A stretch of 64,000 nucleotides of DNA. Origin: Flaccisagitta enflata. Lineage: Eukaryota. This document shows, piece after piece, positions 5,455 through 48,030 of the stretch (positions within the stretch are counted from its first letter, which is position 1; every line of letters begins with the position of its first letter). The notes under the pieces were generated by a model that was not told the DNA's origin, made no database searches, and was given only the letters and a program-made list of their open reading frames with translations. The DNA is taken from positions 5,022,001 through 5,086,000 of the forward strand of contig OZ231126.1 of assembly GCA_965153355.1 (NCBI GenBank), given 5' to 3'. A program made the position numbers and the translations under genes.

Positions 5455-5581
5455 ATGTGGTTGTTGGTGCTCGTCGAGTTTTGGAGCATCTGTCTTTATT
5501 TTTGGGACATTGGTTTGGACATTCTCGTTTGCAAGGAAGGATATGGAAAGACATTCTCCCAAAGACAAGACAAATCAAAAG
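5455..5581 (+). CDS. XK-related protein, probable first coding exon
   Basis: MWLLVLVEFWSICLYFWDIGLDILVC matches the XK-family TM1 D-x3-D pattern, followed by donor G|GTAAAG at 5582. The phase join to the next exon was not resolved. Confidence 0.65.
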
Positions 5582-5620
5582 GTAAAGACAGTCTCGTCGT
5601 TGAGGTGACTTTAGCGTGTA

Positions 5621-6123
5621 CTGTGGAAACCCGATTTAACGACCTTGAAGGGTCTGGGAAATTTTTGTCGTTAAAATCCCAATGTTGTTAAAACGAATTT
5701 CAATTTTTTCTGATAGTTTTAAAACAAGGACAAATAATTGTATTCACGGTCAGGATTCCCGTCATCAAATTTCTCAATTCTAAGGGTCTAAATAAAATAT
5801 GATTTTATAAGTTCTACATTTGTGCAACTGGCCAATAGATACACTAAAAGGTCGATAATCCGCTTCTTAAAAACTCAGTATAACACATTTTTTAGCTATA
5901 GCAATCAAATAAATATGTCAAAATAGTAATAGTACATTGGAGAAAAGTCATCCATGAGACTTAGAAATAGTGTTTTTACATCAGATTTGGATATCAAATC
6001 AGGTATACTTAAATTGATTGAAATTAACGTTGCAAAAGCCTGTAAGAATTTAGGATTTGGGAAACCTGACTGTTAAATCCGAAATGTTGTTAAATCAGGT
6101 GGTAAAAACATGGTAGTCCACTG
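5621..6123. mobile_element. Degenerate pogo/Tc1-like MITE in XK intron
   Basis: TA-CTGTGGAAACCCGATTTAAC ... GTTAAATCAGG..GTCCACTG-TA. Confidence 0.55.
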
Positions 6124-6270
6124 TAGTTCAAAAACCTTATCTCTCTGATCGTGAAACGTTGGAGCGTCTGTCTATATTTTTGAAGTATTGGTTGGGATAC
6201 TACTTGACTCGAAAAAAAGCTGCACCCTATTTTGGGTTGATGAATATGAGAAAAAAAGTTACTTGAACTT

Positions 6271-6475
6271 TTTAGACGCCTGCTACGCGACTCTACACCC
6301 CGCTTTGTTGGTCCGTCCGTTGGTCCGTCCGTCCGTCCGTCCCTTGGTCCGTCACAATTTACTTTTTTTTGGTTTTTGCAGTCTTTGGCCTCATTGCCCC
6401 TGCCCAAATGATCAAGTGACCTCAAATATAGCCCCTGCCCACCCGCACGCGACTGGGGTAGCCGTGTATCCAGCC
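6271..6475 (+). mobile_element. DINE-1/HINE-like (Helentron-associated) element
   Basis: 5' inverted repeat, (GTCC)n microsatellite, 3' CGCACGCGACT subterminal repeat and GTAGCCGTGTATCCAGCC end, T-rich insertion site. Related copies at ~7664-7836(-), 8177-8386(-), 25036-25190(-), 31123-31404(-), 36085-36376(-), 44621-44781(-), 48115-48336, 48686-48882, 49221-49590, 57831-58052. Confidence 0.7.
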
Positions 6476-6834
6476 AGGCGTTCATATTTTGTAAACCTTC
6501 CGAGAGGCAGAAATTTTGCCTCATAAGTTTCCGACATAGATTCTCTTGTTGGTAACCCTTTTTAATAAAGAATTGTAAAATGGTTTACTAAACAGCATGC
6601 AGCATGCATGAACTCTTTTTCACCCAAATTGGCCATGTCATAGAACCAATTGTGCAAAAGGTTTGAAAAGTGATTGAATTCAATCAATCAATCAATCAGA
6701 TTTTTTCCAAGTCTGACAAAATACCACTTAGTTCTCCACAGGCCCTTGCGGTTTTTAATCTTGTTTTGTTTCTTTCTTTGCTTCTTTGCTTCTGTTTTGC
6801 TTCATTTTATTCTTACTTTTTTTCTTTCTTTTTT

Positions 6835-6837
<3 letters not shown>

Positions 6838-6900
<63 letters not shown>
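6838..6900. repeat. (TTTC)n microsatellite
   Basis: Direct inspection. Confidence 0.95.
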
Positions 6901-6901
<1 letters not shown>

Positions 6902-7550
6902 CTTTTTCTTCTTCTTCAACCTCTTCCAAGATTTTCCGACAACTTCCTTAACCTTCCGAGAAGCGGCGCTTCCCGCTTCTTCAAAATATGAACGCCTGTA
7001 TCCAGCCTTGTTTCTGTTGAAGTGGTTTTAAAATTTTTAAGATTTTCTTTTCTTTTAGACCACGCCCAGATCTGTTTCTTGAACGGTTTAAGAGCCAGAG
7101 CTTATCAAAGTGATCTTCTATTTTGTAAAAATGCTTATTTTTCAATAGGAGTGCAAACTGATAATAATAATTTTTCTACTCTTTCTTATGCCATTTCTAA
7201 AGAATAAAGCTACAATTGCCAGATTGGAGCCAAATGAAAGATCTTTCTAAGAGCTTTCTAACGGTCTAAGATTTTACTTCATTTTTTTAAGATTAAATTT
7301 CACAATTTGCCTTTTAAAAGTGCGGCTTTTCTATTTAGTCCAGTAGTATCGGTTGCAATATTGGCTTTGATATTGGGCCAAAAAACTCTTTATATCCAAT
7401 TTCAGTGAACTCAGTAATTCAAGATTCGTATCTCAAAGAATTTATAATCAACCTTTTAGAAATTAAAGGGGATGCTCCCATGTGACTACTTGTCTTTTAA
7501 GCACAATTTTTTTGCATAAGGAAAGTGAAACAAAAAACAAAGATGTCACC

Positions 7551-7554
<4 letters not shown>

Positions 7555-7639
<85 letters not shown>
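7555..7639. repeat. (GA)n microsatellite
   Basis: Direct inspection. (CT)n tracts also at ~33843-33992, 38830-38977, 55337-55423 and 61882-61954. Confidence 0.95.
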
Positions 7640-7640
<1 letters not shown>

Positions 7641-8464
7641 CAAGAGAGAAATATTTGAAAAATAAACGGCTGATTACACAGCTACCCTAGTCGCGTGCGG
7701 GTGGGCAGTATGCTCGAAAAGCTAAAAAATGCCAAAAAAGTAAAAAGGGGACCAACCGACCAATCAACCAAACAACTAACCGACGGAGGGACCAACAGTG
7801 ACGGAGACCGTAGAGTCGCGTAGCACGCGACTAAAAACTGATATGTTCTTTAACAGGATGAGCAGGAAATTTGGCACAAGCAAATATTTGTAAACACAGC
7901 ACTTCAAGGTGGGCAAATAAGCAAAAATTTGGATCATAACCTCATAATGAGTTCCACTGAACAATAGTATGAACCGTTATTCACTTTTACAATTGCTGCA
8001 ACCTTGAGAAGGCTTCAAAATTGAAATGCCCTCTCATATTTTGCAGAATTTTTACTAGCCATTTTTTGCAAAATGGAATCTCTACAAAGTCTTATGTCAT
8101 TCTTTTGAGGTCAGCGTCTTACAGAAAAGGTGTACCAATGGATGATTGGGTCAAGGGGTGAGAAATAACTGTAAAAACAAGTGACGCGGGGTCACAATAT
8201 CGTTGCGGACGGGTGGGCAGGGGCATCCAACCCCTTTCCACAACCCAACCCACCTCCAACACTCAAACATACAAAAAATGTATTGAAAACGCTCGTTTTC
8301 AACTCAATCACCATGACGGACCGACCGACCAACGGACCGACGGACGGACAAAGCCTCTTATAGAGTTGCGTGTCCGCAACTAAAAATGTCAACCATATCC
8401 ACTCCCTAAAAGCAATAAGAGCCATTGAACACTAACCTTATGTTACCTTCGCATTATTGTTTAG

Positions 8465-8808
8465 TTTCAAATCCTTTTACATGAACATGATTTTATTTGA
8501 AATAAAAAAGCTCGATGGAGAATATGTAATGGATAAATTTTGCTTACTTAACAAGCATTCTACTTATCAAGGTATGAAATATGTTTGGGACATCCTGGAT
8601 TTGGTATCTTCTCATGAACTGGTTGACATGGAGGCAATTCACTTTCTGCTCACTTGGCTCTGGATTTTCTTGGGATATCTCGCTCAGTTTGTGATGGTCT
8701 GTCGCCACATCAAAGCGCAAGATTATCTTCCGGCGGCTTATAAATTCTTCATTGTTCTCTCTTCTCTGTTCATGCTTGGCCCAACCATGATTCATATCTA
8801 CTGCATAG
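8465..8808 (+). CDS. XK-related protein, internal exon (5' boundary uncertain)
   Basis: Hydrophobic TM segments HFLLTWLWIFLGYLAQFV and FFIVLSSLFMLGPTMIHIYCIG, including the LGP motif of XK proteins. The phase-1 donor at 8809 matches the phase-1 acceptor at 9410-9411. Confidence 0.7.
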
Positions 8809-9411
8809 GTCACAGTGCAAACGAAGGCAAAATTAGACAACCGTGCATATTCATAACTTGCTCTACTTTTGAGTTTTATCAAATTAAAGATTTTTTTAGT
8901 TTTATTATTCTCATACACAATGCTTGAAAAATAAAACAAACCAAGAAACTTGATATTGCATTGATGATAAACAGAAACAATCACTCATTTGCAAGAATTC
9001 CTTGAAAATACAGTTGCAAAAATTTTAAAAGCAGTCGGGTGAAATTCTAAGACTATTTCTAGATGCAAATTTTTGCATTTGTAAGTACATAGCTCTATTC
9101 TTTTATGTTTTTTGAACGAGGCTATGTTTTTGGAAATACAAATATATCAGTGTAGGAACCAGCTTAGGATACCACCCAAGATAACTCAAATTGCAAAACT
9201 AAATTTCTTTGATGAATTTATAATTCTTGTATTATTTGTCATCACTTTTCTTACATTTAAGTGAGATATCAATTATCTTCCATGCAAAAAAAATCATAAT
9301 GAAAGTAAATAAACCTATGTTTGATTAAAAAAAAATCATTTTATGATGTTAAAAATTGTCTAAAAATGTTTTGACTCATAAAATTTTGTCTCCGTTTGCA
9401 CTGTGACATAG

Positions 9412-10354
9412 GCCTCCTTATTGTTTTCCGATGTATCCCGAGTCCAACTTTGTCGTCACAATCCACAACGATCCAGAATCTCAATCGCGCGCTTCTTTTC
9501 GCCCACACGGTTAAACTGGCGGAAATCTTCTTCGAGTGTATGCCGCAATTTTTGACCCAACTGGTTATGACCAGCGCCAAGGGAAATAACGGTTTAAAGG
9601 AGATGACGCTTTTGCAAATGGGATCTGTAGTCAGTAGTTGTATCACCATCACATGGGGAATCTCTAAATACACTATCCAAAATCACGGGGAATTTGTCTC
9701 TAAAAGTCATTCGAAAATGACGTCGCAATTGGTTCTTATTTTTGTCATTTTGTCCGAAGTCGTTTTTTGCGGGGGTGTGAGTCGGTTTTCATTCGCTTTC
9801 TACAGAGGGCGCATTCCGCTTGTAGCGATGTTGATGCCCCTTACTGCCGTCTCATCCTTTTTTCACATGTGTCAACTTGTCAATGGCGTCAAAGGCTCCA
9901 AATACGGAGATCTTTCATTTCTTTTTGCGCGCTTGTTCATTTGGGTTAGCGTACTTTTCGCTTTCTTTTCCGAACCTTCGTTTGAGAAAGGTGAGAGGGC
10001 GCTGGTTATCAACAATTCGTGGGTAGTTTTTTGCGTAACTATGACGATCGTGGCAGGAGTCAATACTATTGTGGGATTTCTTATTCGAAGACAGACGACC
10101 AATTTTAGATTGTACAACTGGATTGATCAGTGGCTACAAGCCACCTCGACAGCCTTGGTCAAGCGAATTGACGCTGATCCATTTGAAAAGGGGCGTGGAG
10201 AATCAATAAAAGCGTTGACCAACTTGAGTGAAGAGGAAGTGACAGCGGCTTTTAGGAGGAAACGCTTCGCAGAGAGACGGCATAGTGAACCAGTTTCCAG
10301 TATCGACAATGGAGAGCGTGATAACTCTATTTTAGGAGATTTGGATACAACCTG
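9412..10354 (+). CDS. XK-related protein, 5' part of last exon, interrupted by LTR retrotransposon
   Basis: KLAEIFFECMPQFLTQL matches the XK hallmark E-x2-[LF]-E-x2-P-Q-x2-[LT]-Q. It is followed by several TM helices and a hydrophilic tail. The frame runs into the LTR and stops at 10424. Confidence 0.85.
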
Positions 10355-11270
10355 TATAAATTACGCCCACGAGTTTCAACTGGCACTGTCTATGAGCGTC
10401 TATCTGACTGACGACTTGTGGTGAAAGAAAGTTGGCCGATTGGAAAATAGGAAGGCGATCGTCTCGTTTATTCCATAAAAATTTCAACAACTGAAGAGAG
10501 GGGATAAAATAAAAAGGGAAAGTGGGCGTTAAAGGTGATCAGCAAACGCAAAAGATAACATGAAATCGAGACAGGACACAATAAAGGACAGAAACAGCAC
10601 ATGACAACATGTTCATCTTCTTCAGAGCCCATGCCACCTGATAATACCTGCCCCTGCCCCGGCCCATCCCATTAAATTCATCCATATCATCCCCATAGTA
10701 AGCTGATCGGGCAAACGATAAAAACCATACTAAAATCCGGCGATAAAAATGCAAAAAACGCAAAAAACAAGAATAACAGACCGGAATACAAGATAAAAAC
10801 AACGTTACTAAAACGAAAACGCGTCTATAAAACTTACTTTTAGGCCCACTTTCGTTGGTTTCAACCCACAGTCTGTCGATGTCAAACTAACGTTAATTGT
10901 CCGTTCATAAGTTTATCTGCAATAAAAAGATGAGAGATTATTGAAATTAGTAAATTCCAAGGGCACATTCAATCAATCACGAAAAACTCAATCAATCACT
11001 TTAGGAAGCAATGCCGTAAATAAATAAAAACAATCAATCCAAAATTGGATGACACGAAGACGAGATACGTATGTTTGTTTACGTAATAAAAACAAATGGC
11101 ACAAAATACAAGGCGCAACCATATGGTTACCCATCTAGCCTTCATTATAAAAAATGGCGAGAAACAAAAGACACCGGCATTGAATAATAAGAAAAGAGGA
11201 AAAGCCAAAAGCACGCAAAAGAAACAAAAGCACACATACCCAGTAGGCGGACAGACATACATTTCTAACA
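10355..11270 (-). repeat. 3' LTR
   Basis: Direct repeat of 17943-18856. About five differences seen by eye (two substitutions, three small indels). Confidence 0.95.
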
Positions 11271-12318
11271 GAATTTTTTAAATTTCACGAATTTCAAAAA
11301 TCCGACACCTAGTTTCCGGTCGGGGAAACCCTACTAAAAAACCGATACTACCTTCCTTAAAAAAAAATTACACAGACACAGCCCCCGCCCCTCCCCCCCC
11401 GTCCACCGCCTCTTACATCCCCACCCTAACTATCAACAGATCGAAGACTGCACGAATGATGATTTCCGTCCGGAAAGGATCCACCACCAGCAATTTTTCA
11501 ACGATCCAACATGACGCGGATGGAAACGAGGCGGCGGCGAGGAGTTGAGCACCCGTTCTGTAAAATTAAGGGGAAAAGGGAAGGGGCAGACATGGGCACC
11601 TCCAAGCCTGGGATTTGACTTGAAGGAAAATAATAAGTAGGGGCATACTACTAAAAACATGTCATACGAAAGTATTCGTAATAATGACTATAAAAGACCA
11701 TGTCTAAAACAAACACAACAAAAAATACATGTTCCAAGGAACCAAACAAAACAAGACAAAATAAATAAGTTACTAACTATATGTAAAAACGAATATGAAA
11801 GGCGAAAAAATTAGTAAGCATCATGGAACGACCACGTCACCTGCGCCTTCTCCATTACAGAGACGAGCGGGTCATTCCGGAGCTCCAAAACCTCGTCAAT
11901 CCGTGGGCGAAAGGCGATGAATGATGTCGTCAACGGCGACCGCATCGAAAGGCGCAGGTGGAGCCGGATGCCGACGTGACATCTTGACTCCGACGAGCGA
12001 CTTCAAGATGTAGACTGACTTCGTAGATGGAATAACGTCGTCAGCGGAAGCTTTGAAATGTTCGTTATCGCGAACTGATAATGGTAAGAACGGATTTTTG
12101 CACAATAATATGTACATATAGACAGAGCGAATGAATCAGTGTTTTGATGTGTGAGTGGAAATGGATAACATAATTGACAAGAGGAAAGATGAAAGCATGG
12201 ATAATCAGAACCAAATATGAATAATAACAACTCTTTGTAAATATAACAAGTCAGAGTTTCAATCACTCATATCTATAGTTACTAATGGACAGGCCCATGC
12301 TTTTCTCTCTCTCAAAAC

Positions 12319-13050
12319 TTAGCGTTTTTTATGAATCCAATTCCAGCCGCAGACGCTTTGTGCGGTCTTCGTCACGATCTTTTCATCTTGGCGTCGAGGA
12401 TAAGCCCTCCGGACATGAGCTGATGAACCTTCGACACCCATGACGCGTCCTAAACTCCAATTGTGACGAGGCAGCGTTTCGTCCATGACGACGACCATGT
12501 CATCGACCGCAAAGTCTCTCTCGGATCTCGACCATTTGCTTTGCGCGTGAAGAAGCGCCAAATATTCGACCCTCCACGATTTCCAAAACGCATCCACACG
12601 CGATTGCGCACGCCTCCATTGAATCTTCGCTGAGTCGGCGTCAGAGTTGACGCCTTGTTGCGCCAGATCCAGAGGGGCGTGACCGGATGTTGATGGATTG
12701 AGGATATGATTCGGTGTGAGGGCCTCAGAATCATTTGGATCATCGCTGAGCGCTGTCAGAGAACGGCGATTGAGAATTCCTTCAACTTCGACGACAGCAG
12801 TGTTAAAGGCATCGACGTGGAGGATGGTGCCAATAGAGATGGAAGCAAGATGGCGCTTTGATGGAAGCTTGGCCATTCGCTGATTCGCGTTCTTTTTAAA
12901 GTTCTTCTGGCATCTGAAGCACGTGTTGACGACGCTCTTGACAGCCTGAAGACCTTTTGTAATCCACACAAATTGGCGTAATTGGCACAATGTATGCTTT
13001 GCACCCACGTGAAAATCATTATGATGATAATGGCGAATTAATGATTTCAC
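12319..13050 (-). pseudogene. pol: Integrase remnant: HHCC zinc-binding domain plus C-terminal DUF5641-like domain, catalytic core deleted
   Basis: HYHHNDFHVG...WI...CFRC, then a jump after MAKLPSKR to EVEGILNRRSL..LTPNHIL and FWKSWRVEYL..WSLGRV. The DDE core is absent. Confidence 0.9.
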
Positions 13051-13089
13051 ATTCTCGTCTTTGGCGGAAGGATGAAGGGAAATTTAGCG

Positions 13090-14040
13090 TCATGTGCGAT
13101 CGGCATTCTCCAGTTGGCTGCCCGCGAAGGACGCCGTCGTCATCGACGAAAGGTTCAACTTTAGCACCTCCTTGTTCTTGATGATAAAGTCACGACGGCT
13201 TTCTGGCTTAAAGGCTTTTCCCAACTCCAATTGTTCGAAAACGTCGGAATAATGTTGCCGCTGCATTGACTTGACGAGCTGTTTGCGCGCCTCCTCCAAG
13301 ACGTCTTGCGCCACTTCCGGTTTAGGAAGAAGATCCTTTGCTGCAATTGGGCAAAAGTATGTCTTTTTCTCTAACATTTTGCACGCTCTGAAATTTTCAA
13401 GGGAATCGCCCATCTCCTCTTGCGAGACGATTGGTGATGCAAAGTCATGGTAGAAGATGCGGTCAATGTTGCTATTGAGGACGCGATTATCGAGAATGCG
13501 ATCGATGCTGTCGTGGAGGACGCGATCATCCGTTGCGATGGCGTTGACCGATGCAAAATCTCGCCCCCTCTTCCCCGTTTTTCCACATACAGTCCAACCG
13601 AATAAACATCTGAAGCAAGTCAAGGATCCTGAAGGCCCTCGGCGGATTTCCTGAGCGACGGCGGCATCCGCATGCGCCGCTCCGATGATCATCATAACGC
13701 CGCCTTCTGCTTCTGGAAACTTTATATCTCTGATGTGGGGTTGGTCGGATAGGTCGCGGAGAAAAGGAGGAATGTCGCGTTCACTCGTCAACAAATCACC
13801 CACCAACGCGTCGTTGACGTCGACGACATATTCCTCGTCGACCGACTTCATGGTGAATGATGCGATGAAACGATCCTCAACAACATGATTTCCCACAGTA
13901 ATCACCGTCATTTGCACTGTTTTTGTTGGAATCAGAAGACTGCGAATGACATTGGTACTGATCACGTCGCGATCAGCGCCTGAGTCGATCATAGCGTAAA
14001 TCGTCCTCTGCGCACCCGAAGAATTGTTTATGATAGTCAC
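13090..14040 (-). pseudogene. pol: Aspartic protease plus linker, fused to post-RNase H sequence (RT and RNase H deleted)
   Basis: YAMIDSGADRDVIS active site, IIGA and LFGWTVCG motifs typical of BEL/Pao. No YxDD RT motif occurs before the pre-integrase segment LEEARKQLVKSMQRQHY. Confidence 0.85.
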
Positions 14041-14106
14041 TGGAACAATCGGACGGACAACGTCGTCGAATGAAGAGACGGACCGCGACGTTGCCGTCGC
14101 CGCCAG

Positions 14107-17100
14107 TCATGCCGTGACGTTAGAAGAGATCACTTCCGTAGGATTGGCTGCCTCCGCCGTCGACGGAGCTGTTGGTGCTGCTGCAGCCGCATCCTCTGAC
14201 TTGTTGAAGGGAGCCAGCGGTACTTTATTTCCCTGCTTATTCTCTCCTTTCTTCTCTTCCTTTTCTTCTTTCTTGTAGGTGCGCCCGTGGAGAATTGTTG
14301 TGTGCCGTTTCTTGCAGATCTGGCAAGTTGGTCTGTTCGCGCATCCTTTGGCGTTGTGTCCTGGCGCGAGGCAGTGGAAACAAAGACGACGAGACATGAT
14401 CTTTTGAACTCTCGCGTCCACTTCCAACTCTAACAGCTGATGACATTCTTCTGTTTGATGCATTCCACTGCAGACGTTGCAGCGGTCCGTCGACTGCATC
14501 TTTTGCTTGCCATTGGTCAAAGCATCCCCATATGATGATGGCGCTTCTTTTTCTGTCGTTGCGACTGCTGCCACTGACGCTGTTTTGCAGCTTGCACCTT
14601 TGTTGCGCTGAATCACCGCCCATGTTTCAATCATGTTGACCAAGTTGTCGAATGAAAATGACTGTCCTTTTTGGGCTGCTTCATGTTGCTTTTCCCAAAA
14701 TTTATCTGCAAGATGAGGGACCCTCTTATTGAGGATTTCCTGCAGCAGCTCGTCACGATAGCATTGTTGCACTTCTCCACAGGTCCTCGCAATTTTCTTT
14801 GCCTTTTGCAGCCTTGCAGACAGATTGAAATGCCTTGCATGGTCGGCCGACTGGATCTTCGCCTCCGCGACGATTTCGTTGAACATCGCCGCAATATTGC
14901 AGCGCTTGCCATAAAAGACGACGTCCATTTTTGCGAAGGCGTCGTCAATCTCTTCCCTTGCTGTCGCTTCAGTTGCACCAATCGTCGCAGTTTCGATGAT
15001 CTCCTTTGCCGGACCAGCAAACCACTTAGGCAATTCCACTAAAATGTCCATTTGCGTCAAGCCTTCATGCTTTTCAGCATCTTGAACTTCCTCTTCCACA
15101 TCATGAAATCGGTGAAAGCTCCTGCAGAGGCTTCTCAGGTCTTGCTCTCTCCAATGCTTTGAGGCCGACCTCCCTTGCTCGCATATGATCGTTGTACGCC
15201 GCCCTCTCCAAGAACATGTCCAGAGCCGGATTGTTGGGCATCTGTACATGAACTTCCGGTTGACGAGCTACTTGATGATGCTCTACTTGATGATACGCTG
15301 GGGCTTGTTGGGTGAATGCGTATTGACCCCCGACCTTGACCGGCGATCTCTTTTTGGTAGTTTTCACACTCCACCCAACTTCTTCCTGCTGATTCATTTG
15401 TTGTTGACGATCATCTTGATGGAATCGGGGAGCATCAAAATCTTGGCGGACGTACTGCCGCTTTTGTTGTTCTTCTTTGCGTTGTTTCTCTTCTTCTCTC
15501 GCTGCGGCAAGGTCAAAGTCTCTCTGCTGAATCTGCATCTTCAAACTATCCACTTCTTGCTGCAAACGTTGATTCTGCTGGATGACTTCCGCTTGAGGCG
15601 TTGCTAGAGGCGCTTGCGCTACTTCTGGCACCTTCGGCTGCAATCCACTCATTGTCTTCTTAGGAGCGACTTTTCTTCTCTCCTTATCTTGCAGCTGCTG
15701 TGCCAACTTCGCGTCAGCGGCCTCCTGCCTCTGCCTCCTGCGCATCGCCTCCGTTGCATCACCTCCGCTTCCGGCTGTGTTGAAGACCTTTTCCTCTTGA
15801 CGGGGAAGTTCAGTCTCCCTTCTAGTAGAACCAGTCTGCTTCTCGAAGATCACTTCCGGTGCGGTAGGGAGAATCGTTGCTGCTGGGGTTTGATGATGCT
15901 GATAATGATGCTGTTGCTGTTGTTGAAACCGTTGCTGCTGCCACTGTTGATGTTGAAGCTGCTGCTGCTGGTCAGGATGCTGTTGCTGCTCATTCTGCTG
16001 CTGCAGTTGATGCTGTCGCTGTCCTTGCTGCTGCTGCTGCTCCAACTGTTGCTGCTGCTGCATGGCTGACGGACGTTTCCACTGGCTGCACATGCGTTGC
16101 TGCAAGTTCGAATTAAAACCCGTTGAATTTTTTGAAGATGGATCGGTCTTTTGGCGGATGCTGCGGCTGCTGCTTGTCCAGCTCAGACAGTTGTCTAAGC
16201 TTCACATCCCGCTGCTCTAAAGCTCACCAATGCCGCGTCGTTCAGGCTATTCCAGTGCTTTCGTTGCATCTCTGCCGCATTGTTGAATCCTCCTGCCCTT
16301 CTATCTTCATCTCGCTGCTGCTGTTGGCGAAAGCATTCTGTCGTATAATTCTTTGTCTTTTTGTGATGAGCTTCGCTGTTGGAATCCCAATGGCACCGCG
16401 ATGAACGCCTTTGGAGCTGTTGCTGCACCACCACCTTCACCTTCAGCCATCATGCGCAATCGTTGTTCTGCAAGGCGTTGCTGTCTCTCTTCTTCTGTTT
16501 CTTCACTGACATTCATGCTTTCGACAGGATGGTTATTTGACGCTGGAGGATCCACTACTACCGCTGGAATCGCGGCGGAAGGTTGCTGTTGCTGCTGCAG
16601 TTGCTGTTGCATATGTTCCTCTGCAGTATTTTGCCGCTGTTGTTGTTGTTCTTGCGGCTGCGTTACCGGTTGATGTTGTTGCAGCTCTTGTTGTTGCTGC
16701 TGCTGCTGTTGCTGCTGTTGATCGTGTTGTTGCTGTTGTTGAACCACAGATTGTGGCGCCGGCTGCAGGATTTGACGTTGTTGTTGGTCTTGTTGACGAA
16801 ATTGTTGAAGTTGCTGCAACTGCTGCTGCTGCAACAGCTCTTGCTGCTGCCGTTGAGCTGTCGTTTGCTGCTGCTCCTGCGGTCGGTGGAGTTGACGTTG
16901 CTGTTGGAGTTGCTGCTGCTGCATCTGCAATTGATGCTGCTGCTGTTGCTCCTGTTGCTGTCGCTGCTCCTCCTCACGTTGTTGCTGCTGCATATCGTTT
17001 ATCAGCCGACGGCCTTGTCGCATTTCTTCCTCCAGCTGCCTACCCCATCTGTCTCTCTCCGCACTCCTATTGATGAAGCGTCGCCTCGCCCTCTCCTGCG

Positions 17101-17891
17101 GCGTCAGTCCGTTGATGATCCCGCGACCTCTTGCGAGAGCATCGGCGTCGTCGAGATCCGCAAGCATGTCGTCGGCCTGCTCCATCGGAGACGCACGCGC
17201 AGGTTCGATTTCCGATACCAAGTCTGAAACCCACTGATTGACGGCATCTCCTCTTTGAATCGGCGGCAGATCTAAAAATTGGCCGCCAGTTGGAGATTGT
17301 GCACCATGTCGAGGGATTGGAAGTGGTAGATACTCGGATCCGTCGGGGTTTGGCGAAGACGTTCGCATCCTTGGAGTTGGAGCGCCAGTAATATTGTCAC
17401 GGGCGGCATGAGTGTCAGTTGGGAGGCTGTTCCATGAGAAGTCATTGACGGGTCTTTTACGATTCCCAATGTCATTGTGCATTGCGTTCACGATGTCGGC
17501 GTTGGAAGGAAAACCCTCTGGATAGTTTTCACGATCGAAGAAACGCATGGAGTTCCATTCGCGCCGGATTCGACGCAGAGTGGACGCCGCGAATCGAAGA
17601 GGGTCGCCGGGCATCGAATCGAGCGCCATTTGCCTTGCGTATGATATAAAGTCGTAGACCATGTCCCGAAGGCCTTGTCGAGCGCCATCTGATTCACATG
17701 CGGCGTCGTCGAAATCATTCGTCCCTTCGGCGCAAGCGTAACGCGTCGAAAAGGCGCCGGCATCCTTCCATCTCCGCCGTGATGTCGTTCCTCATTGCCC
17801 GCAAGCGATTGACCTCGGACACTGATTCAAACCGTGAGATACGCGAGATGGCGTTGAAGCAGTGAGACGGTGTGCTGTTACGGCGCGCCAT
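14107..17891 (-). pseudogene. gag: Long Gln-rich gag, broken by several frameshifts
   Basis: ORF pieces 17715-17897, 16307-17662, 15101-16105 and 14107-15249. The last has three knuckles: CNVCSGMHQTEEC, CFHCLAPGHNAKGC and CQICKKRHTTILH. Confidence 0.85.
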
Positions 17892-17942
17892 TGTCAATTT
17901 CTTTGGAGGTCGAAGATGTAAAGTCGAGTCGTTTTCGTGAAA

Positions 17943-18856
17943 TATAAATTACGCCCACGAGTTTCATGGCACTGTCTATGAGCGTCTATCTGACTGACGA
18001 CTTGTGGTGAAAGAAAGTTGGCCGATTGGAAAATAGGAAGGCGATCATCTCGTTTATTCCATAAAAATTTCAACAACTGAAGAGAGGGGATAAAATAAAA
18101 GGGAAAGTGGGCGTTAATGGTGATCAGCAAACGCAAAAGATAACATGAAATCGAGACAGGACACAATAAAGGACAGAAACAGCACATGACAACATGTTCA
18201 TCTTCTTCAGAGCCCATGCCACCTGATAATACCTGCCCCTGCCCCGGCCCATCCCATTAAATTCATCCATATCATCCCCATAGTAAGCTGATCGGGCAAA
18301 CGATAAAAACCATACTAAAATCCGGCGATAAAAATGCAAAAAACGCAAAAAACAAGAATAACAGACCGGAATACAAGATAAAAACAACGTTACTAAAACG
18401 AAAACGCGTCTATAAAACTTACTTTTAGGCCCACTTTCGTTGGTTTCAACCCACAGTCTGTCGATGTCAAACTAACGTTAATTGTCCGTTCATAAGTTTA
18501 TCTGCAATAAAAAGATGAGAGATTATTGAAATTAGTAAATTCCAAGGGCACATTCAATCAATCACGAAAAACTCAATCAATCACTTTAGGAAGCAATGCC
18601 GTAAATAAATAAAAACAATCAATCCAAAATTGGATGACACGAAGACGAGATACGTATGTTTGTTTACGTAATAAAAAACAAATGGCACAAAATACAAGGC
18701 GCAACCATATGGTTACCCATCTAGCCTTCATTATAAAAAATGGCGAGAAACAAAAGACACCGGCATTGAATAATAAGAAAAGAGGAAAAGCCAAAAGCAC
18801 GCAAAAGAAACAAAAGCACACATACCCAGTAGGCGGACAGACATACATTTCTAACA
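17943..18856 (-). repeat. 5' LTR
   Basis: Begins TGTTAGAAAT on the minus strand. Direct repeat of 10355-11270. Confidence 0.95.
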
Positions 18857-20647
18857 ACCTGCATTCAAGGCTGTCATGGTGAGACGCCAATATCGAGTGA
18901 GAAAAGCCAGCCAACCAGACAGTCTGCATGTAGCTGCGGTAGGCAACTTTTTCACTGGCTGTTTGCGACATTTTTCTTTGTACTATTCATTTTTTGTCTG
19001 GGCTTCATTTGCAGCAGGCCCATAATTTACAAAAAGCCCGGTTACTACGTGTCTTTTCATTCAAGATACTTTAGCGAGCGTGGGTTTCCATTGGTGCATG
19101 ATGACAACGCGGCTCATCGAGGCTCCATTTGTGTGTACAACAAGACAAATTCTGAGATTCTAAAGGTGGCAATTGTCGTAGCTCGACAAATGGGACTTTT
19201 CCCCCATCCAGTACCCTTCATTGACAAAGAAAGTATCAACAGGCACAGCGGTAACAGGAAGCATTACATCGAGGCTACCACATTACTTGTGGGAAACTTG
19301 GACTTCTCCCGCCAAATAGTGGATCAAGAACCGCTCAAGTTTCCTTTCCTTCAACCTTCATGCGTTGGAAATGAAACCAATATCAAGGAATGCAAAAACT
19401 ACGGCCTCTCAGTTTTGCTAGACCCTGCTTGTTACGAGGGACAAAAAAGGCTGTATGTTAGTATCATCAGGCGGCGGGTGCCTCAATCAAAGCCACTCAA
19501 TTCCGTATATTTCATTACCGATATCGATTCCAACTTTTCTGGTACAAAAGAAAGTTGCTTCAATACAAATCTGTTACCTGTCGCGAAACCTGTAAAAGAC
19601 TCGCACCTTTTCCAAAATGGTGACGAGGAACGAATTTTGTTAATGGATCAATTCAAAATGTTGAATATCACCAAGTTGTGGCTGACTAAAGATAGTTTCT
19701 TGATCACCGATCATAATTTTGGCGCTACTTTTCGTCGGTCAAAAGGTGATGTTGAAAATGGGCTTCAACAGTCAATTTGTAAGGTATATCATGACTTCTA
19801 TCCCATGCAGTGTGGTCCCCGTGGGATTCCACTTTGCGACAATTGCACAGAAGTGGCGTACGTCAGGAACAAGTATTGGGAAATTGAATGTCGCTGTGAA
19901 CCGACGCAATGTCCAGAGGAAAGTTGTCCAAGATGCTCGACGCTCCGTCGCAATTATACAGATCAATGTGGCTGTCAAAGGGTTGAATGCGAAGAGAACA
20001 ACATCTGTGGCAATTTTGGCGCTCGGCGATGTAGGTCATGCGAACTGAAGGCATATGTTGAGAAGAGCAAAGATGGTTGTTATTGCATGGAACCAGCTTG
20101 TAAGCCAACTCGATCTTGTAGCAAGGATCTATTTTTGATGGTCTCAATGGGTCTCAATCATAACCTGACCAGGCCGCCAGGTCCAGGCCCAGATGATGAG
20201 AGCGGCATCGACGATGAGAGCGGCACAAACATTGAGAGCGGCGTCAGCCCTGATAGTGGCACTGATGCTGAGAGCGGCACCAATGAGGAAAGGGGCACTG
20301 AAGCTGAGAGAGGCACTGAAGCTGAGAGAGGCACGGATGCTGAGAGTGGCACCAATGCTGTTAGCGGCGCCAATGAGGAAAGGGGCACCAACGCTGAGAG
20401 CGGCACTGAAGCTGAGAGAGGCACAGATGTTGAGAGAGGCATTGACGCTGAAAGAGGCATTGACGCTGAGGGGGGCACAGATGCTGAGAGAGGCACCGAG
20501 GCTGAGAGTGGCACAGTGGCTCACAGTGGCTCACAGTGGCTCACTGTGGCTCAAGCCCAAGCAAACAAGCAGTGCTTTTTGGCAGCAAGGAAATGCTTTA
20601 GGGCAGCAAGGCAGAAACAAGGAAAAAAAATCAAAGGAAACACATGA
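18857..20647 (+). CDS. 3' part of the XK gene's last exon: TM helix, degenerate SRCR, C-type-lectin-like segment, Cys-rich segment, hexapeptide repeats
   Basis: Open from the TSD in the same frame as 9396-10354 (18857 to 19049 is exactly 64 codons with no stop). Motifs: FHWLFATFFFVLFIFCLGFIC, RGSIC..AIVVARQMG..PSCVGNETNIKEC, and CEPTQCPEESCPRC..CGCQRVEC. Confidence 0.8.
   Translation, partial: TCIQGCHGETPISSEKSQPTRQSACSCGRQLFHWLFATFFFVLFIFCLGFICSRPIIYKKPGYYVSFHSRYFSERGFPLVHDDNAAHRGSICVYNKTNSEILKVAIVVARQMGLFPHPVPFIDKESINRHSGNRKHYIEATTLLVGNLDFSRQIVDQEPLKFPFLQPSCVGNETNIKECKNYGLSVLLDPACYEGQKRLYVSIIRRRVPQSKPLNSVYFITDIDSNFSGTKESCFNTNLLPVAKPVKDSHLFQNGDEERILLMDQFKMLNITKLWLTKDSFLITDHNFGATFRRSKGDVENGLQQSICKVYHDFYPMQCGPRGIPLCDNCTEVAYVRNKYWEIECRCEPTQCPEESCPRCSTLRRNYTDQCGCQRVECEENNICGNFGARRCRSCELKAYVEKSKDGCYCMEPACKPTRSCSKDLFLMVSMGLNHNLTRPPGPGPDDESGIDDESGTNIESGVSPDSGTDAESGTNEERGTEAERGTEAERGTDAESGTNAVSGANEERGTNAESGTEAERGTDVERGIDAERGIDAEGGTDAERGTEAESGTVAHSGSQWLTVAQAQANKQCFLAARKCFRAARQKQGKKIKGNT
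20190..20515 (+). repeat. Coding 18-bp tandem repeat, (G-T/I-D/E/N-A/E-E-R/S)n, about 18 copies
   Basis: Direct inspection. In frame with the ORF, followed by (CACAGTGGCT) about 4 times. Confidence 0.9.
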
Positions 20648-21044
20648 AAAAGAAAGTTTTAATAGCACTAATGGGAGGTTTCATTTATGCTAATTGCAGT
20701 TATTGAGAAATTTTCAATATCTAGAGATATTTAAAACTTTGATAATCCTGAGCAAATTTTGTAGGAAGGAACCTGGAAGAAAATCTAGAATGTGAGCAGC
20801 TAGAAATTTGGCAAGGGTGATTCCGTTTGTTCATACATCTAGAGAGGAGGTGGAGATAGGGGGGCCTGATTTGAGGCCTCAGTGGTCTGGATTGTGGCTC
20901 AAGGCGTCAGAGGGCTGATCTCAAGCCTGTGAGGGATGATATCAGACCTGTGATGGCTCATTTCAAGCCTGTATGGAGTGCATTCGAGCCAAAGAGGGCT
21001 GATTTCAGGCATGAGAGGACTGATTTCAGGTCTGACAGGTCGCC

Positions 21045-21440
21045 CAAGGGCAATATGTGGTCAGCGATACCCGTTGCCCTGCTTTGCATGGTTGTAAATT
21101 GGAATGAGAGGAAGCAGGGCAGCAGCCCCAAAAGGGACGAAGACCTGTAAAACACAGGGGTACTTTCGTTCATCCATTTATTTGTTTATTGGTTTGTCGA
21201 TATATCTCCCCCAGGCCCTCTCAGGCCTAAATTCTACCCTCTCAGGCCTGAAATCTACCCTCTCAGGCCTGAAATCTTCCCTCTCAGGCCTTGAATCTGA
21301 AAGGGCAGGTATAAGACCTGAGAGGTCAGATTGAAAGCCAAGGGCAGATTCAAGACCTGAGAGGGCAGATTTCAGGCCTGAGAGGGCAGATTCAAGGCCT
21401 GAGAGGGCCTGGGGGGGACAAACGGATGAGCAAACAAACA
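21045..21440. mobile_element. Second HINE-like repeat family with internal 20-21-bp repeats
   Basis: GTCGCCCAAGGGCAATATGTGGTCAGC...GGCAGCAGCCCC and CAGGCCTGAAATCT units. Relatives at ~27436-27840, 32480-32920, 37483-37920 and 52870-53270. Confidence 0.55.
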
Positions 21441-21640
21441 AATAAACAAACAAATCTTCATCATTCATTATCGATCGTAGGTCCCACTGTTTGGATGAGG
21501 AAGCTAGCTGGTTGCTGGATCCCAAATTTGTGTTCCTTTGCAATTTAGCCATGACGTCAGCAAGTTGAATTTTTGCAGCAGAAACTTTCGTGACAGCTGA
21601 CAAGAAAAATATGAATTGAAATCCCAAGAGAATTGAATAA

Positions 21641-21891
21641 GGGCGCGCTTCTAGTCATGGACTACCGCATTCTTTACGGGCCACATGGTCGCTCGCTGTG
21701 TTTGTTTGCCCGCACTGCTCATTCCGCTCACTCTGCAGCACTCAGCTTTGCTCACTAACTCTGTTCACGGGCTTACTCACTCACTTTGCTCACTCCCTCG
21801 TGGAATAGTCTGTATTCAGAAATATGTGTTCACGCTGAAAATGTGTTGAACAGGAATACACTCGTTGGTTGTCATCACTAGAAACAGGCCC
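21641..21891. mobile_element. PIF/Harbinger-like MITE
   Basis: TAA|GGGCGCGCTTCTAGT ... ACTAGAAACAGGCCC|TAA. Confidence 0.65.
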
Positions 21892-31969: not shown

Positions 31970-32455
31970 AAAATAGCTTCGGTTGTCATCCCCTACATCC
32001 CGGGCATCGCTCACCAAATGCGTCGCATTCTTAAAAGAATCAGGAATCAACGTAATTCATTCGTCTGGCTAGAGCCTTCCAAACATCATTTCCGGGAAGA
32101 ACAAGGTCAAGTTACCCCCGCAACAGATCATCTATAAAGCGCAAAGTCGATGCAAACCGAAGAAAAACAATGCCTACATCGGTCAATCTTGTCGCATGGT
32201 CTACTGTCGATTGGCAGAGCACATGGGTTACATCCGTCGAGGTGAATGGACCAAGTCGGGTCTCGCAGCTCACAAAGAGAATTGCAAGGAAGAAATTAAT
32301 TGGGAGGAGGACGTACAAATAATCGCGAAATGGCAAGCATCGATTAAGCTCGACTACATGGAAAGCCTCTGCATAAAACTTCGCCGAACTAGTCCCTGTC
32401 ACGGTTTTAATGAAGACGAAGGATACCGCGTATACACCAAACAAGACAAAACGTC
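31683..32455 (+). mobile_element. Penelope-like retroelement fragment (RT-EN linker plus GIY-YIG endonuclease), disrupted
   Basis: DNGHSRKKL..., VVIPYIPGIAHQMRRIL, IIYK..C...AYIGQSCRMVYCRLAEH..SGLAAH..MESLCI..FNEDEG. Contains an internal (AAC)n tract, a stop and frameshifts. Confidence 0.85.
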
Positions 32456-33120
32456 CAATGGTTTCAAAAATTTCCGTTTTTGGGCAGCGGCCCCGAAGGG
32501 ACCGATGACCTATGCTTTTGCACATACGGGAAATTTTTCCTTCTTCTCCTCCTTCTTCTTCTTCTCCGTCCAACCCTCGAGGCTCAAATCCAGCTTTAAC
32601 GCCTAAAATCTATCCATGACGCTCAAATCTAGCCCTCAAAGCTCAAAATCCAGCCTCGAAGCTCAAATCCCAGCCTCCAACCTCAAAAACCAGTCTCCAG
32701 GCTCAAATCCCAGTTTCAAGGCTCAAATCCCAGTTTCCAGGCTCAAATCCCAGTTTCCAGGTTCAAAATCCAGCGTTGAGGCTCAAATTCAAGTGTCGAG
32801 GCCCAAATCCCAGCCTTGAGGCTCAAATCCCAGCCTCGAGGCTCAAATCCCAGCCTCGAGGCTCAAATCCTAGCCTCGAGGCTCAAATCCTAGCCTTGAG
32901 GCTGAAATCCTAGCCCACTCAATTTGATATGAGCAAACTTGCCTTGGCCATTATCTGGAATGAGTGTGAATGGATATAAATACCGGGGTGATTAAATACA
33001 AGCAGAAGAGAGATGACGCGTCTTTGATTCTACAACCCTGCGCCGTGATAACGGCCCCATGGGGACCCCATGAATTTAGCCTTTATCGCGCGAAACCGCT
33101 AACGAGGAAACCTTTTTTTT

Positions 33121-36972: not shown

Positions 36973-37458
36973 AAAATAGCTTCGGTTGTCATCCCCTACA
37001 TCCCGGGCATCGCTCACCAAATGCGTCGCATTCTTAAAAGAATCAGGAATCAACGTAATTCATTCGTCTGGCTAGAGCCTTCCAAACATCATTTCCGGGA
37101 AGAACAAGGTCAAGTTACCCCCGCAACAGATCATCTATAAAGCGCAAAGTCGATGCAAACCGAAGAAAAACAATGCCTACATCGGTCAATCTTGTCGCAT
37201 GGTCTACTGTCGATTGGCAGAGCACATGGGTTACATCCGTCGAGGTGAATGGACCAAGTCGGGTCTCGCAGCTCACAAAGAGAATTGCAAGGAAGAAATT
37301 AATTGGGAGGAGGACGTACAAATAATCGCGAAATGGCAAGCATCGATTAAGCTCGACTACATGGAAAGCCTCTGCATAAAACTTCGCCGAACTAGTCCCT
37401 GTCACGGTTTTAATGAAGACGAAGGATACCGCGTATACACCAAACAAGACAAAACGTC
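36655..37458 (+). mobile_element. Penelope-like GIY-YIG fragment, duplicate copy
   Basis: Same sequence as 31683-32455. Confidence 0.85.
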
Positions 37459-38826
37459 CAATGGTTTCAAAAATTTCCGTTTTTGGGCAGCGGCCCCGAA
37501 GGGACCGATGACCTATGCTTTTGCACATACGGGAAATTTTTCCTTCTTCTCCTCCTTCTTCTTCTTCTCCGTCCAACCCTCGAGGCTCAAATCCAGCTTT
37601 GACGCCTAAAATCTATCCATGAAGCTCAAATCTAGCCCTCAAAGCTCAAAATCCAGCCTCGAAGCTCAAATCCCAGCCTCCAACCTCAAAAACCAGTCTC
37701 CAGGCTCAAATCCCAGTTTCAAGGCTCAAATCCCAGTTTCCAGGCTCAAATCCCAGTTTCCAGGTTCAAAATCCAGCGTTGAGGCTCAAATTCAAGTGTC
37801 GAGGCCCAAATCCCAGCCTTGAGGCTCAAATCCCAGCCTCGAGGCTCAAATCCCAGCCTCGAGGCTCAAATCCTAGCCTCGAGGCTCAAATCCTAGCCTT
37901 GAGGCTGAAATCCTAGCCCACTCAATTTGATATGAGCAAACTTGCCTTGGCCATTATCTGGAATGAGTGTGAATGGATATAAATACCGGGGTGATTAAAT
38001 ACAAGCAGAAGAGAGATGACGCGTCTTTGATTCTACAACCCTGCGCCGTGATAACGGCCCCATGGGGACCCCATGAATTTAGCCTTTATCGCGCAAAACC
38101 GCTAACGAGGAAACCTTTTTTTTTTTAGTCGCGTGCACGCGACTCTACAACCCGCTTTGTCGGTCCGTCCATCCATCGGTCCGTCGGTCCGTCCGTCCGT
38201 CCGTCACACTTTACTTTTTTGTACTATAACATCAACTCTTAGGTCATTTTAAGTCATTTTAAGTCATTTATTGTTATTCTAAGTCATTTTGAGTCAGTCT
38301 AAGTCATTTTAAGTCATTTTAAGTTATTTTAAGTTATTTTTTGTTTTTTGTTTTTTTAGTCATTTTAAGTCAATTTTGGTCATTTTAGGTCATTCTAAGT
38401 CATTGAAAGTCATTCTAAGTCATTCTAAGTCATTCTTTGTCTGTAAGTCTAGCACGCGACTTATAGGTGTTGGCCTTGTTCTTACCTCATTTGATTTATG
38501 TCTAATATTGGTAATAATGTTTTGATACGATTATTGTTTTCTTTTCTCTTTTATCATTATTTTTTCAATAAGTCAATAATATAGAATAAGTGGTAAAGAA
38601 AAGATACTGGAATAGTATGCCATTAGTATTTTGTAATGACCAGTGCTCCTGCATCGAGTTTATCTAAGCGAATCTTGATGCTGAAAGATCAACTAACCTA
38701 CAAGGAGACAGACAGGGAGACATTAAGACAGACGGACCAAAAGCAGACCCAAACACAAACAAGAACAAGAACGTGTCATTGACTTTTAGTTGCGTGCTAC
38801 GCGCTTCTACACCCCGCTCTATCTCA

Positions 38827-47841: not shown

Positions 47842-48030
47842 TTTGAAGGCATTGGATGCAATTTTATCAAGCTACATGTACTCTCATGGAATTAGAGGTA
47901 TGTAACTGTAGAAAATCCAAGTTGAATGAGCGGCGATCAAGAGGTACAAAGGGTGGTGACGGTATCAAGAGAGATTATATTGACCACACTTAAAATTGCA
48001 TGAAGTACCTGTGAAAAAAACAGTTATGTT

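Follow-up and report, generated by a model that had tools for sequence, protein, structure and literature searches.

A stretch of 64,000 nucleotides from Flaccisagitta enflata (contig OZ231126.1 of assembly GCA_965153355.1, positions 5,022,001 to 5,086,000 of the forward strand; hereafter, the window) carries what is best explained, with a probability of roughly three in four, as a single animal gene for a predicted protein of ~1,030 residues, in which a divergent XK-related domain is followed by a linker, a ninth transmembrane (TM) helix and an ectodomain with SRCR-like, C-type-lectin-domain (CTLD)-like, cysteine-rich and acidic parts. On this reading, the gene has been split by a young BEL/Pao-like element flanked by long terminal repeats (LTRs), and its product would be a scramblase with a built-in partner. 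The window has the character of animal DNA (~38% G+C, introns of the GT-AG type), and ordinary annotation misses the gene in this assembly, its main exon being split by a young retrotransposon and none of its exons passing a Pfam threshold alone.

The LTR retrotransposon spans 8,502 bp inside a single long exon of the XK-like gene, and its insertion point falls among the codons of the cytoplasmic linker, within the large last exon. Excision of 10355-18861 (8,507 bp) creates the junction ...GAT ACA ACC TG/C ATT CAA GGC... (the stroke marks the joint), which reads ...DLDTT-C-IQGCHG..., and brings the open reading frames (ORFs) 9375-10424 and 18833-20647 into the same frame. This agrees with a preliminary description of the stretch, which had claimed that excision joins two ORFs without a stop or shift through the same junction peptide and that the rejoined exon measures ~2.7 kb, the value found here being 943 + 1,786 = 2,729 bp. 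With the element in place, the left ORF enters the LTR for 23 codons and stops at 10422-10424, and since the LTR interrupts the codons of the linker, the inserted allele would yield at most the XK-like domain followed by 23 LTR-encoded residues. Comparison of the two LTRs over ~915 bp shows 2 substitutions and 3 small indels, corresponding to ~99.8% identity counting substitutions. Because the LTRs are nearly identical and the host ORF is intact on both sides, the disruption is judged from the sequence to be recent, and the insertion may be polymorphic among alleles. A retrotransposon insertion is in itself ordinary, and a match in frame alone has a one-in-three chance of occurring; homology is therefore the decisive evidence for one gene.

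That homology is provided by proteins in which both halves are present together. The search with the C-terminal half led to P0002, a single ORF of 825 residues on a 2,752-bp contig, which is 49% identical to the left half over its residues 70-327 and 40% identical to the right half over its residues 401-816, with both in the same order as in the window. Exhaustive phmmer searching with the 326-residue translation of 9375-10352 (the left part of exon 3 with 13 upstream codons, also used for modelling) returned only 36 clusters at E ≤ 0.001 among 1.84 billion representatives, so the XK-like fusion family appears to be small. At least 150 residues follow the XK-like region in 12 of 37 family proteins, and the C-terminal part is present in all 12, the remainder of the set being fragments too short for the fusion to be judged. 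The long relatives compared with the window are collinear with it in seven cases out of seven, over 8595-8810, 9396-10277 and 18893-20113, with no other match in the window. The homologue search for longer proteins, made with the C-terminal half, gave no relative among those of 1,527-4,360 residues, and JGI metagenome contigs searched with peptides from that half also gave none, all 71 pattern matches being unconfirmed. Taken together, P0002, the 12 judgeable proteins and the seven collinear ones identify the two halves as one predicted protein whose architecture is conserved in the family, as the preliminary description had proposed in speaking of one hidden gene. A 194-residue fragment, P0001, is 90% identical to the XK-like exon and diverges from it completely after ...EEE-TAA in the linker (~10240-10300); it comes from another source and may stem from a paralog, from a different species or from a separate rearrangement close to the same point.

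The complete gene model was assembled with a script as the coordinate join 5455-5581 + 8572-8808 + 9412-10354 + 18862-20647, whose 3,093 nt make up 1,030 codons with a stop at the end and none within, and whose two introns are both GT-AG with matching phases. Exon 1 ends in phase 1, which fits exon 2, and is followed by GT at 5582-5583. In the alignment columns, the exon 2 motif ...H..LTWLWI...QF... is invariant across the family. The left part of exon 3 holds the XK-like domain up to ~10103, including K-L-A-E-I-F-F-E and PQFLTQ, then cytoplasmic helices up to ~10277, and then the beginning of the linker. Across the exon 2/3 junction, P0002 aligns without a gap, its residues 10-71 corresponding to 8625-8810 and its residues 70-327 to 9408-10166, and in the sequencing run X1, from which the assembly may derive, one contig passes from 8803 to 9411 over four intervening letters, reproducing the exact spliced junction with 2 synonymous third-position changes. 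This contig suggests either an intron-less second copy, which could be a processed copy or an intron-loss allele, or cDNA present in that run; the run carrying the intron-less joint is guessed to be DNA.

The state of the allele was followed by comparison with reads over 8400-10700, a range chosen so that only one copy of the LTR lay within it. In run X1, a contig ends exactly at 10354. In run X2, which has the same organism label and comes from another sample, a 230-nt contig fits 10215-10354 and goes on for 90 letters unlike the LTR, and in run X3, labelled as a marine metagenome, a 362-nt contig fits 10173-10354 and goes on for 180 letters unlike the LTR. The overhangs in X2 and X3 have the pattern expected of an empty site and may derive from such sites. 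An exact 24-base word taken from the right-hand duplication gave 0 matches. In the RNA run X9 of the same study, 0 reads fell on 8400-10700 among the ~6% of the run that was read, which is no test of expression. The summed depth over the LTR is ~1e3-fold above that of the adjoining exon in the runs, and while depth is not copy number, the element belongs to a highly repeated family. Intron 2 is likewise filled by a repeated element; over the region 8785-9477, the summed contig depth in X1-X3 is 10-500x that of the flanking exons, with many alternative joints. Intron 1 contains long microsatellites, (TTTC)n at 6765-6910 and (AG)43 at 7554-7639.

The N-terminal half is, on the evidence of profiles and models, a divergent XK-related domain, and the family belongs to the XK-related proteins. 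PF09815 is the sole recurrent Pfam family among its members, matching 22 of 38 at E ≤ 0.01 (best 2.8e-8) and exceeding the gathering score of 24.8 bits in 3 of 14 relatives (P0009, 30.7 bits; P0004, 27.3 bits; P0005, 25.9 bits), and exon 3 of the window matches PF09815-positive relatives in phmmer with E from 1e-44 down to 1.9e-53. The AlphaFold2 model of the 326-residue piece, built with a 38-sequence alignment and representing the TM4-TM8 part, has a pLDDT of 82.6 and a pTM of 0.72. A VIA comparison of this model against 48,161 representative chains, made without the Foldseek prefilter, put the library's three XKR structures, whose fold is made up of two four-helix repeats, each with a half-inserted helix, at ranks 1, 2 and 5: rat XKR9 (7p16_A, Z 10.9 over 218 residues), human XKR4 (9boj_B, Z 10.5 over 212) and human XKR8 (8xej_X, Z 10.2 over 219). 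The other top rows are four-helix bundles with ~110 residues aligned, and only the XKRs reach 212-219.

In passages of the structural study of hXkr8 (PMC8500837), the charged residues of the lipid path are given as D26, D30, R134, E137 and E141. Corresponding spacings are present in the window, as D-x3-D in exon 1 and as K-x2-E-x3-E (K-L-A-E-I-F-F-E) in exon 3, the latter being nearly invariant in the family. We take these residues as possible equivalents of those of the hXkr8 path by the spacing of the motifs in the hXkr8 sequence, not by a computed alignment. Because the D-x3-D and K/R-x2-E-x3-E spacing is kept, the XK-like domain would be expected to act in phospholipid scrambling or in a scramblase-like handling of lipids.

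With respect to topology, XKR8 and XKR9 are described, in passages of the respective reports (PMC8500837, PMC8298096), as having eight TM helices, two half-inserted helices and a cytoplasmic C-terminal helix. Behind the XK-like domain, the family has a linker that varies and measures about 110 residues in the window protein; after it, a strongly hydrophobic 21-mer is found in 13 of 13 sequences checked. Lysine and arginine residues number 46 in the 15 residues before this ninth helix vs 24 in the 15 residues after it, summed over the 13 sequences, and are more frequent on the N-terminal side in 11 of the 13, the other two being ties, of which the window itself is one. After the ninth helix, there are 24 cysteines and 7 N-x-S/T sequons, with one sequon each in the XK-like region and in the linker. 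The precedent of eight TM helices, the lysine/arginine bias and the distribution of cysteines and sequons all fit a C-terminal part that is extracellular, and the tail followed by one more TM helix and by a cysteine- and sequon-rich ectodomain, which the preliminary description had put forward, is in keeping with the relatives as well. Shortly after the post-TM8 helix, about 6 of the 11 aligned sequences show an x-x-x-D motif by eye; as only some members have it, the evidence is too weak for a caspase site to be claimed in the linker. A complex prediction for the products of the three XK-like exons with the C-terminal half, made in two runs with the alignments unused, scored 0.00, which counts as evidence neither for nor against.

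The model of the C-terminal half has a mean pLDDT of 55.5, with values of 66-88 in module 1 (residues 59-207), 65-80 in module 2 (residues 214-310) and below 50 in the Cys-rich region and the repeats. Foldseek against the PDB returned SRCR proteins, by title, in 39-40 of the 41 rows shown, among them CD5L, CD163, neurotrypsin, DMBT1, SCARA1/5, CD6, factor I and LOXL2, with TM scores of 0.6-0.68 on single-domain targets and a best E of 2.5e-3. In VIA, SRCR proteins fill nearly all of ranks 1-12 on residues 59-204, for example CD6 (Z 8.0, 101 residues, root-mean-square deviation (rmsd) 2.6) and SCARA5 (Z 7.4, 105 of 109 residues). Some 30 of the 50 rows, mostly below the SRCR ranks, are CTLDs placed on model residues 197/214-310, such as CRD4 of the mannose receptor (Z 5.6, 87 residues, rmsd 2.7) and L-selectin (Z 5.1, 82 residues, rmsd 2.2). 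The SRCR-like module carries an insertion of ~40 residues, and its pattern C.G.E.....C...GL.......C resembles the C-terminal half of SRCR domains. By fold, then, the two modules appear SRCR-like and compact CTLD-like, as candidate homologues, and the second of them, if it is a CTLD, would be of the compact, non-lectin kind.

The ninth helix with its ectodomain would take, within one chain, the part of the single-pass glycoproteins that other family members have as separate partners (basigin/neuroplastin for XKR8, Kell for XK), and would serve surface delivery and possibly also outside-in control. XK-Kell of red cells, in which a disulfide joins XK to the product of another gene, the type II zinc endopeptidase Kell, is a second precedent beside XKR8-basigin and one that the preliminary description had left unmentioned. 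Regarding the first, basigin and neuroplastin are described in passages of PMC8298096 as bringing XKR8 to the plasma membrane. Since the ectodomain is attached where XKR8, XKR9 and XKR4 carry their regulatory tail, a coupling of outside events to a cytoplasmic gate is conceivable, and the ligand-sensing or adhesion-coupled scramblase of the preliminary description would be a putative role of the protein. It is unlikely that the protein goes as far as being a single-chain, outside-in gated scramblase in which ligand binding by the ectodomain or cleavage of the linker would switch phosphatidylserine exposure directly. Such a molecule would have a pattern-recognition ectodomain wired through the ninth helix and the linker to the position of the autoinhibitory tail of XKR8, XKR9 and XKR4, the retrotransposon would uncouple the two parts in the inserted allele, and, if true, this would be a kind of scramblase so far undescribed.

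It has to be noted that a number of results weigh against the explanation of the gene as a scramblase fused to an SRCR- and CTLD-bearing partner, beginning with its N-terminal half. The window exons, which were scanned singly for Pfam, a procedure that lowers the score, gave no PF09815 match at E ≤ 1 (4 pieces) or at E ≤ 10 (3 exons); exon 1 has no homolog and is a prediction from sequence; and the modelled TM piece is without TM1-TM3. The XKR fold matches have an rmsd of 6.2-6.5 Å and Z values under the tool's caution line of ~13 for helical proteins, and the Foldseek rows for the TM model against the PDB include no XKR and no match at E ≤ 0.001. Searched with the family profiles, the PDB sequences yielded no chain of an XKR, SRCR or lectin protein at E ≤ 10, save a non-significant match to echicetin B (E 0.46), and phmmer of both halves against the PDB gave low-complexity or chance matches only. 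The XK-type domain of the preliminary description is upheld through PF09815 in the relatives and through XKR9, XKR4 and XKR8 as the top full-length fold matches, and it is not upheld by a PF09815 match in the window exons; of the XK and SRCR profiles on which that description had staked its identification, neither is matched by the window sequence itself, and only the former is matched in relatives. In one alternative, the XK-derived bundle no longer scrambles, and the protein would work at the surface in reception or adhesion, with the bundle serving to anchor it or to dock a lipid-transfer partner, as XK docks VPS13A. Consistent with that, the subfamily is very divergent, none of its 36 clusters being shown to be a canonical XKR, and the exons of the window miss PF09815; purified XKR9 is described in passages of PMC8298096 as showing no scrambling in liposomes, meaning that activity is not automatic in the XK family; and the XK-VPS13A partnership is known (PMC9436381). 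This alternative is nevertheless considered unlikely, as the charged path residues retain their spacing, with the E-x3-E part nearly invariant in the family, which would be unexpected for a mere anchor.

For the C-terminal half, the corresponding alternative is that the two modules are a lineage-specific pair of disulfide-rich domains merely resembling the SRCR and C-type-lectin folds. There is no profile match to SRCR (PF00530/PF15494) or Lectin_C (PF00059) in the window pieces, in P0002 (E ≤ 10), in the 14 relatives or in the 38 members; Foldseek with the model of the C-terminal half gave no match at E ≤ 0.001; the Z values of 5-8 for SRCR and CTLD structures lie within the tool's 'common' range; and model confidence is limited, even within the modules. 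Conserved cysteines number six in canonical SRCR domains of group A and eight in those of group B, and the SRCR-like module has 4 (in the numbering of the C-terminal half, C90, C167, C177 and C190); in the lectin-like module, the loop region is short, and it is without the EPN or QPD and WND motifs by which C-type lectins bind Ca2+ and sugar. On the other side, two independent aligners give almost only SRCR proteins for residues 59-204, over nearly whole targets, almost only CTLDs are returned for residues 197/214-310, and the cysteine motif of module 1 has the resemblance to SRCR domains that was noted above, so that a mere likeness of fold is regarded as doubtful. The SRCR and lectin-like labels of the preliminary description are based on fold matches of middling Z, and not on profiles, and in its Cys-rich fusion architecture the Cys-rich region is present and the SRCR/lectin identity is putative and one of fold only. 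A further alternative, that the window copy is a dead allele or a dead paralog with the working gene elsewhere, for instance in an intron-less copy as in X1 or a P0001-type copy, draws on the truncation of the ORF by the insertion, on the X1 contig with its exact splice joint and two synonymous differences, which could be a second, intron-less copy or cDNA, and on the 90% identity of P0001 and its divergence in the linker. It is held to be improbable in view of the 1,030 codons that are free of stops across both halves and of the near identity of the LTRs, which imply a disruption that is recent and maybe polymorphic, and in view of the X2 and X3 contigs that continue past 10354 with non-LTR letters. 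Finally, the frame match at one-in-three odds and the lack of any transcript seen would allow for two unrelated neighbouring genes that come into frame by chance after excision; because every relative that can be judged has the two halves in a single ORF, in the same order as the window, such a chance juxtaposition is extremely improbable and is excluded for practical purposes. The features of the preferred explanation, one fused gene disrupted recently, are collected in Table 1.

Table 1. Features of the disrupted XK-like gene and of the inserted element, in window coordinates.
Feature	Position	Strand	Remarks
Predicted exon 1	5455-5581	+	ATG at 5455; 42 codons; hydrophobic helix (putative TM1) with W-D-I-G-L-D (D-x3-D)
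Exon 2	8572-8808	+	Loop and putative TM2-TM3; AG 8570-8571, GT 8809-8810; matched by 7/7 relatives
Exon 3, left part	9412-10354	+	Rest of XK-like domain, cytoplasmic helices, start of linker; AG 9410-9411
Target-site duplication ACCTG, left copy	10350-10354	.	5 bp; abuts left LTR
LTR (3' in element orientation)	10355-11270	-	916 bp
Element, internal part	11271-17942	-	ORFs and Pfam
ORF with integrase zinc finger and DUF5641	13083-12319	-	Integrase_H2C2 2.3e-9; DUF5641 7.2e-18
Protease-like ORF	14106-13090	-	Weak Asp_protease_2
gag-like ORF with Cys/His knuckle	15267-14107	-	
Two Q-rich ORFs, 494 and 366 residues	17791-16307, 16201-15101	-	No Pfam family; upstream of gag-like ORF
LTR (5' in element orientation)	17943-18856	-	914 bp
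Target-site duplication ACCTG, right copy	18857-18861	.	5 bp; abuts right LTR
Exon 3, right part: end of cytoplasmic linker	18862-18934	+	ORF, P0002 alignment, coordinate join
Extra (ninth) TM helix	18935-19015	+	Model helix, residues 25-51 of C-terminal half, pLDDT ~90; hydropathy
SRCR-like module	19037-19483	+	4 family-invariant Cys; P.L.P.C.G.E.....C...GL.......C
Compact C-type-lectin-like module	19502-19792	+	Two conserved Cys; no EPN/QPD or WND
Cys-rich region	19802-20122	+	Low-confidence model; common in full only to P0002
Acidic tandem repeats	20186-20530	+	18-nt, 6-residue units of E-S/R-G-T-D/E-A type; predicted disordered; private to window
Basic C-terminal helix and stop (20645-20647)	20531-20647	+	Predicted; private to window

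Lying antisense to the gene, the inserted element has the look of a BEL/Pao-like LTR retrotransposon that has lost internal parts. The presence of DUF5641 is what we take to link it to BEL/Pao, and it resembles the LTR retrotransposons of this type in its LTRs of 914-916 bp, its 5-bp duplication and the order of its gag-like, protease-like, integrase zinc finger and DUF5641 parts. It differs from them in that no reverse transcriptase (RT), RNase H or integrase core was matched at E ≤ 0.01 in the 5 minus-strand ORFs of 254-494 residues that were scanned, for which reason it appears to be internally deleted, and in its added Q-rich ORFs. Some 2.7 kb of Q-rich coding sequence upstream of gag is unusual for an LTR element without RT.

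As for the surroundings, just past the stop of the gene, at 20909-21408 and 21178-21654 (minus strand), 21-nt and 42-nt tandem repeats overlap a 158-residue minus-strand ORF with a repetitive peptide. An NLR-like gene lies ~25 kb downstream, with an ORF of 827 residues at 45388-47871 on the minus strand and a NACHT match (PF05729, E 1.3e-9). Two ORF pairs of equal lengths (177 residues on the plus strand, 165 on the minus strand), at 32073-32609 and 37076-37612, are ~5.0 kb apart, which suggests a direct duplication or other long repeats, possibly a second LTR element.

While the XK-related kind of protein is known, the present domain architecture is apparently undescribed: the combination of an XK-related domain with an SRCR-like/lectin-like ectodomain was not found in full-text literature searches, InterPro architectures lying outside their coverage. 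Its significance lies in the unsettled question of why proteins of the XK family depend on, or associate with, single-pass glycoproteins that are separate from them. The two being naturally fused, and the fusion conserved, would be a 'Rosetta-stone' argument that the pairing of an XK domain with a glycoprotein is general to the XK family, and it would provide a system of a single polypeptide in which to ask whether the role of the ectodomain subunit is one of trafficking, gating or ligand coupling.

Among known systems, a close counterpart is the complex of human XKR8 with basigin or neuroplastin (PDB 7DCE, 8XEJ), which likewise consists of an XK-family domain and one further TM helix with a glycosylated ectodomain, and to which the window protein is likened by the fold match to 8xej_X and by the spacing of the putative path residues. 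It differs from that complex in that the helix and the ectodomain would belong to the same polypeptide, joined through a C-terminal cytoplasmic linker at the place where XKR8 has its regulatory tail, in that SRCR-like and lectin-like modules stand in place of an immunoglobulin ectodomain, and in that the window sequence is too divergent for PF09815. XK-Kell is similar in its covalent tie between an XK-family member and a glycoprotein that crosses the membrane once and has a large ectodomain, and it differs in that the tie is a disulfide and the partner a protease, whereas here it would be a peptide bond with no protease-like part. The group of XKR9, XKR4 (PDB 7P16, 9BOJ) and CED-8, the first two of which are the best fold matches, shares with the window protein the cytoplasmic helices after the last TM helix, yet its members end in a caspase-cleaved cytoplasmic tail, without a further TM helix or ectodomain. 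Finally, receptors with SRCR domains or CTLDs, such as CD163, CD6, SCARA5 and DMBT1 on the one hand and the mannose receptor and the selectins on the other, show a resemblance of fold over residues 59-204 and 214-310 of the C-terminal half, respectively; they carry no polytopic XK-like domain, and the modules of the window protein depart from theirs in having no profile match, four cysteines, an insertion of ~40 residues and no Ca2+/sugar motif.

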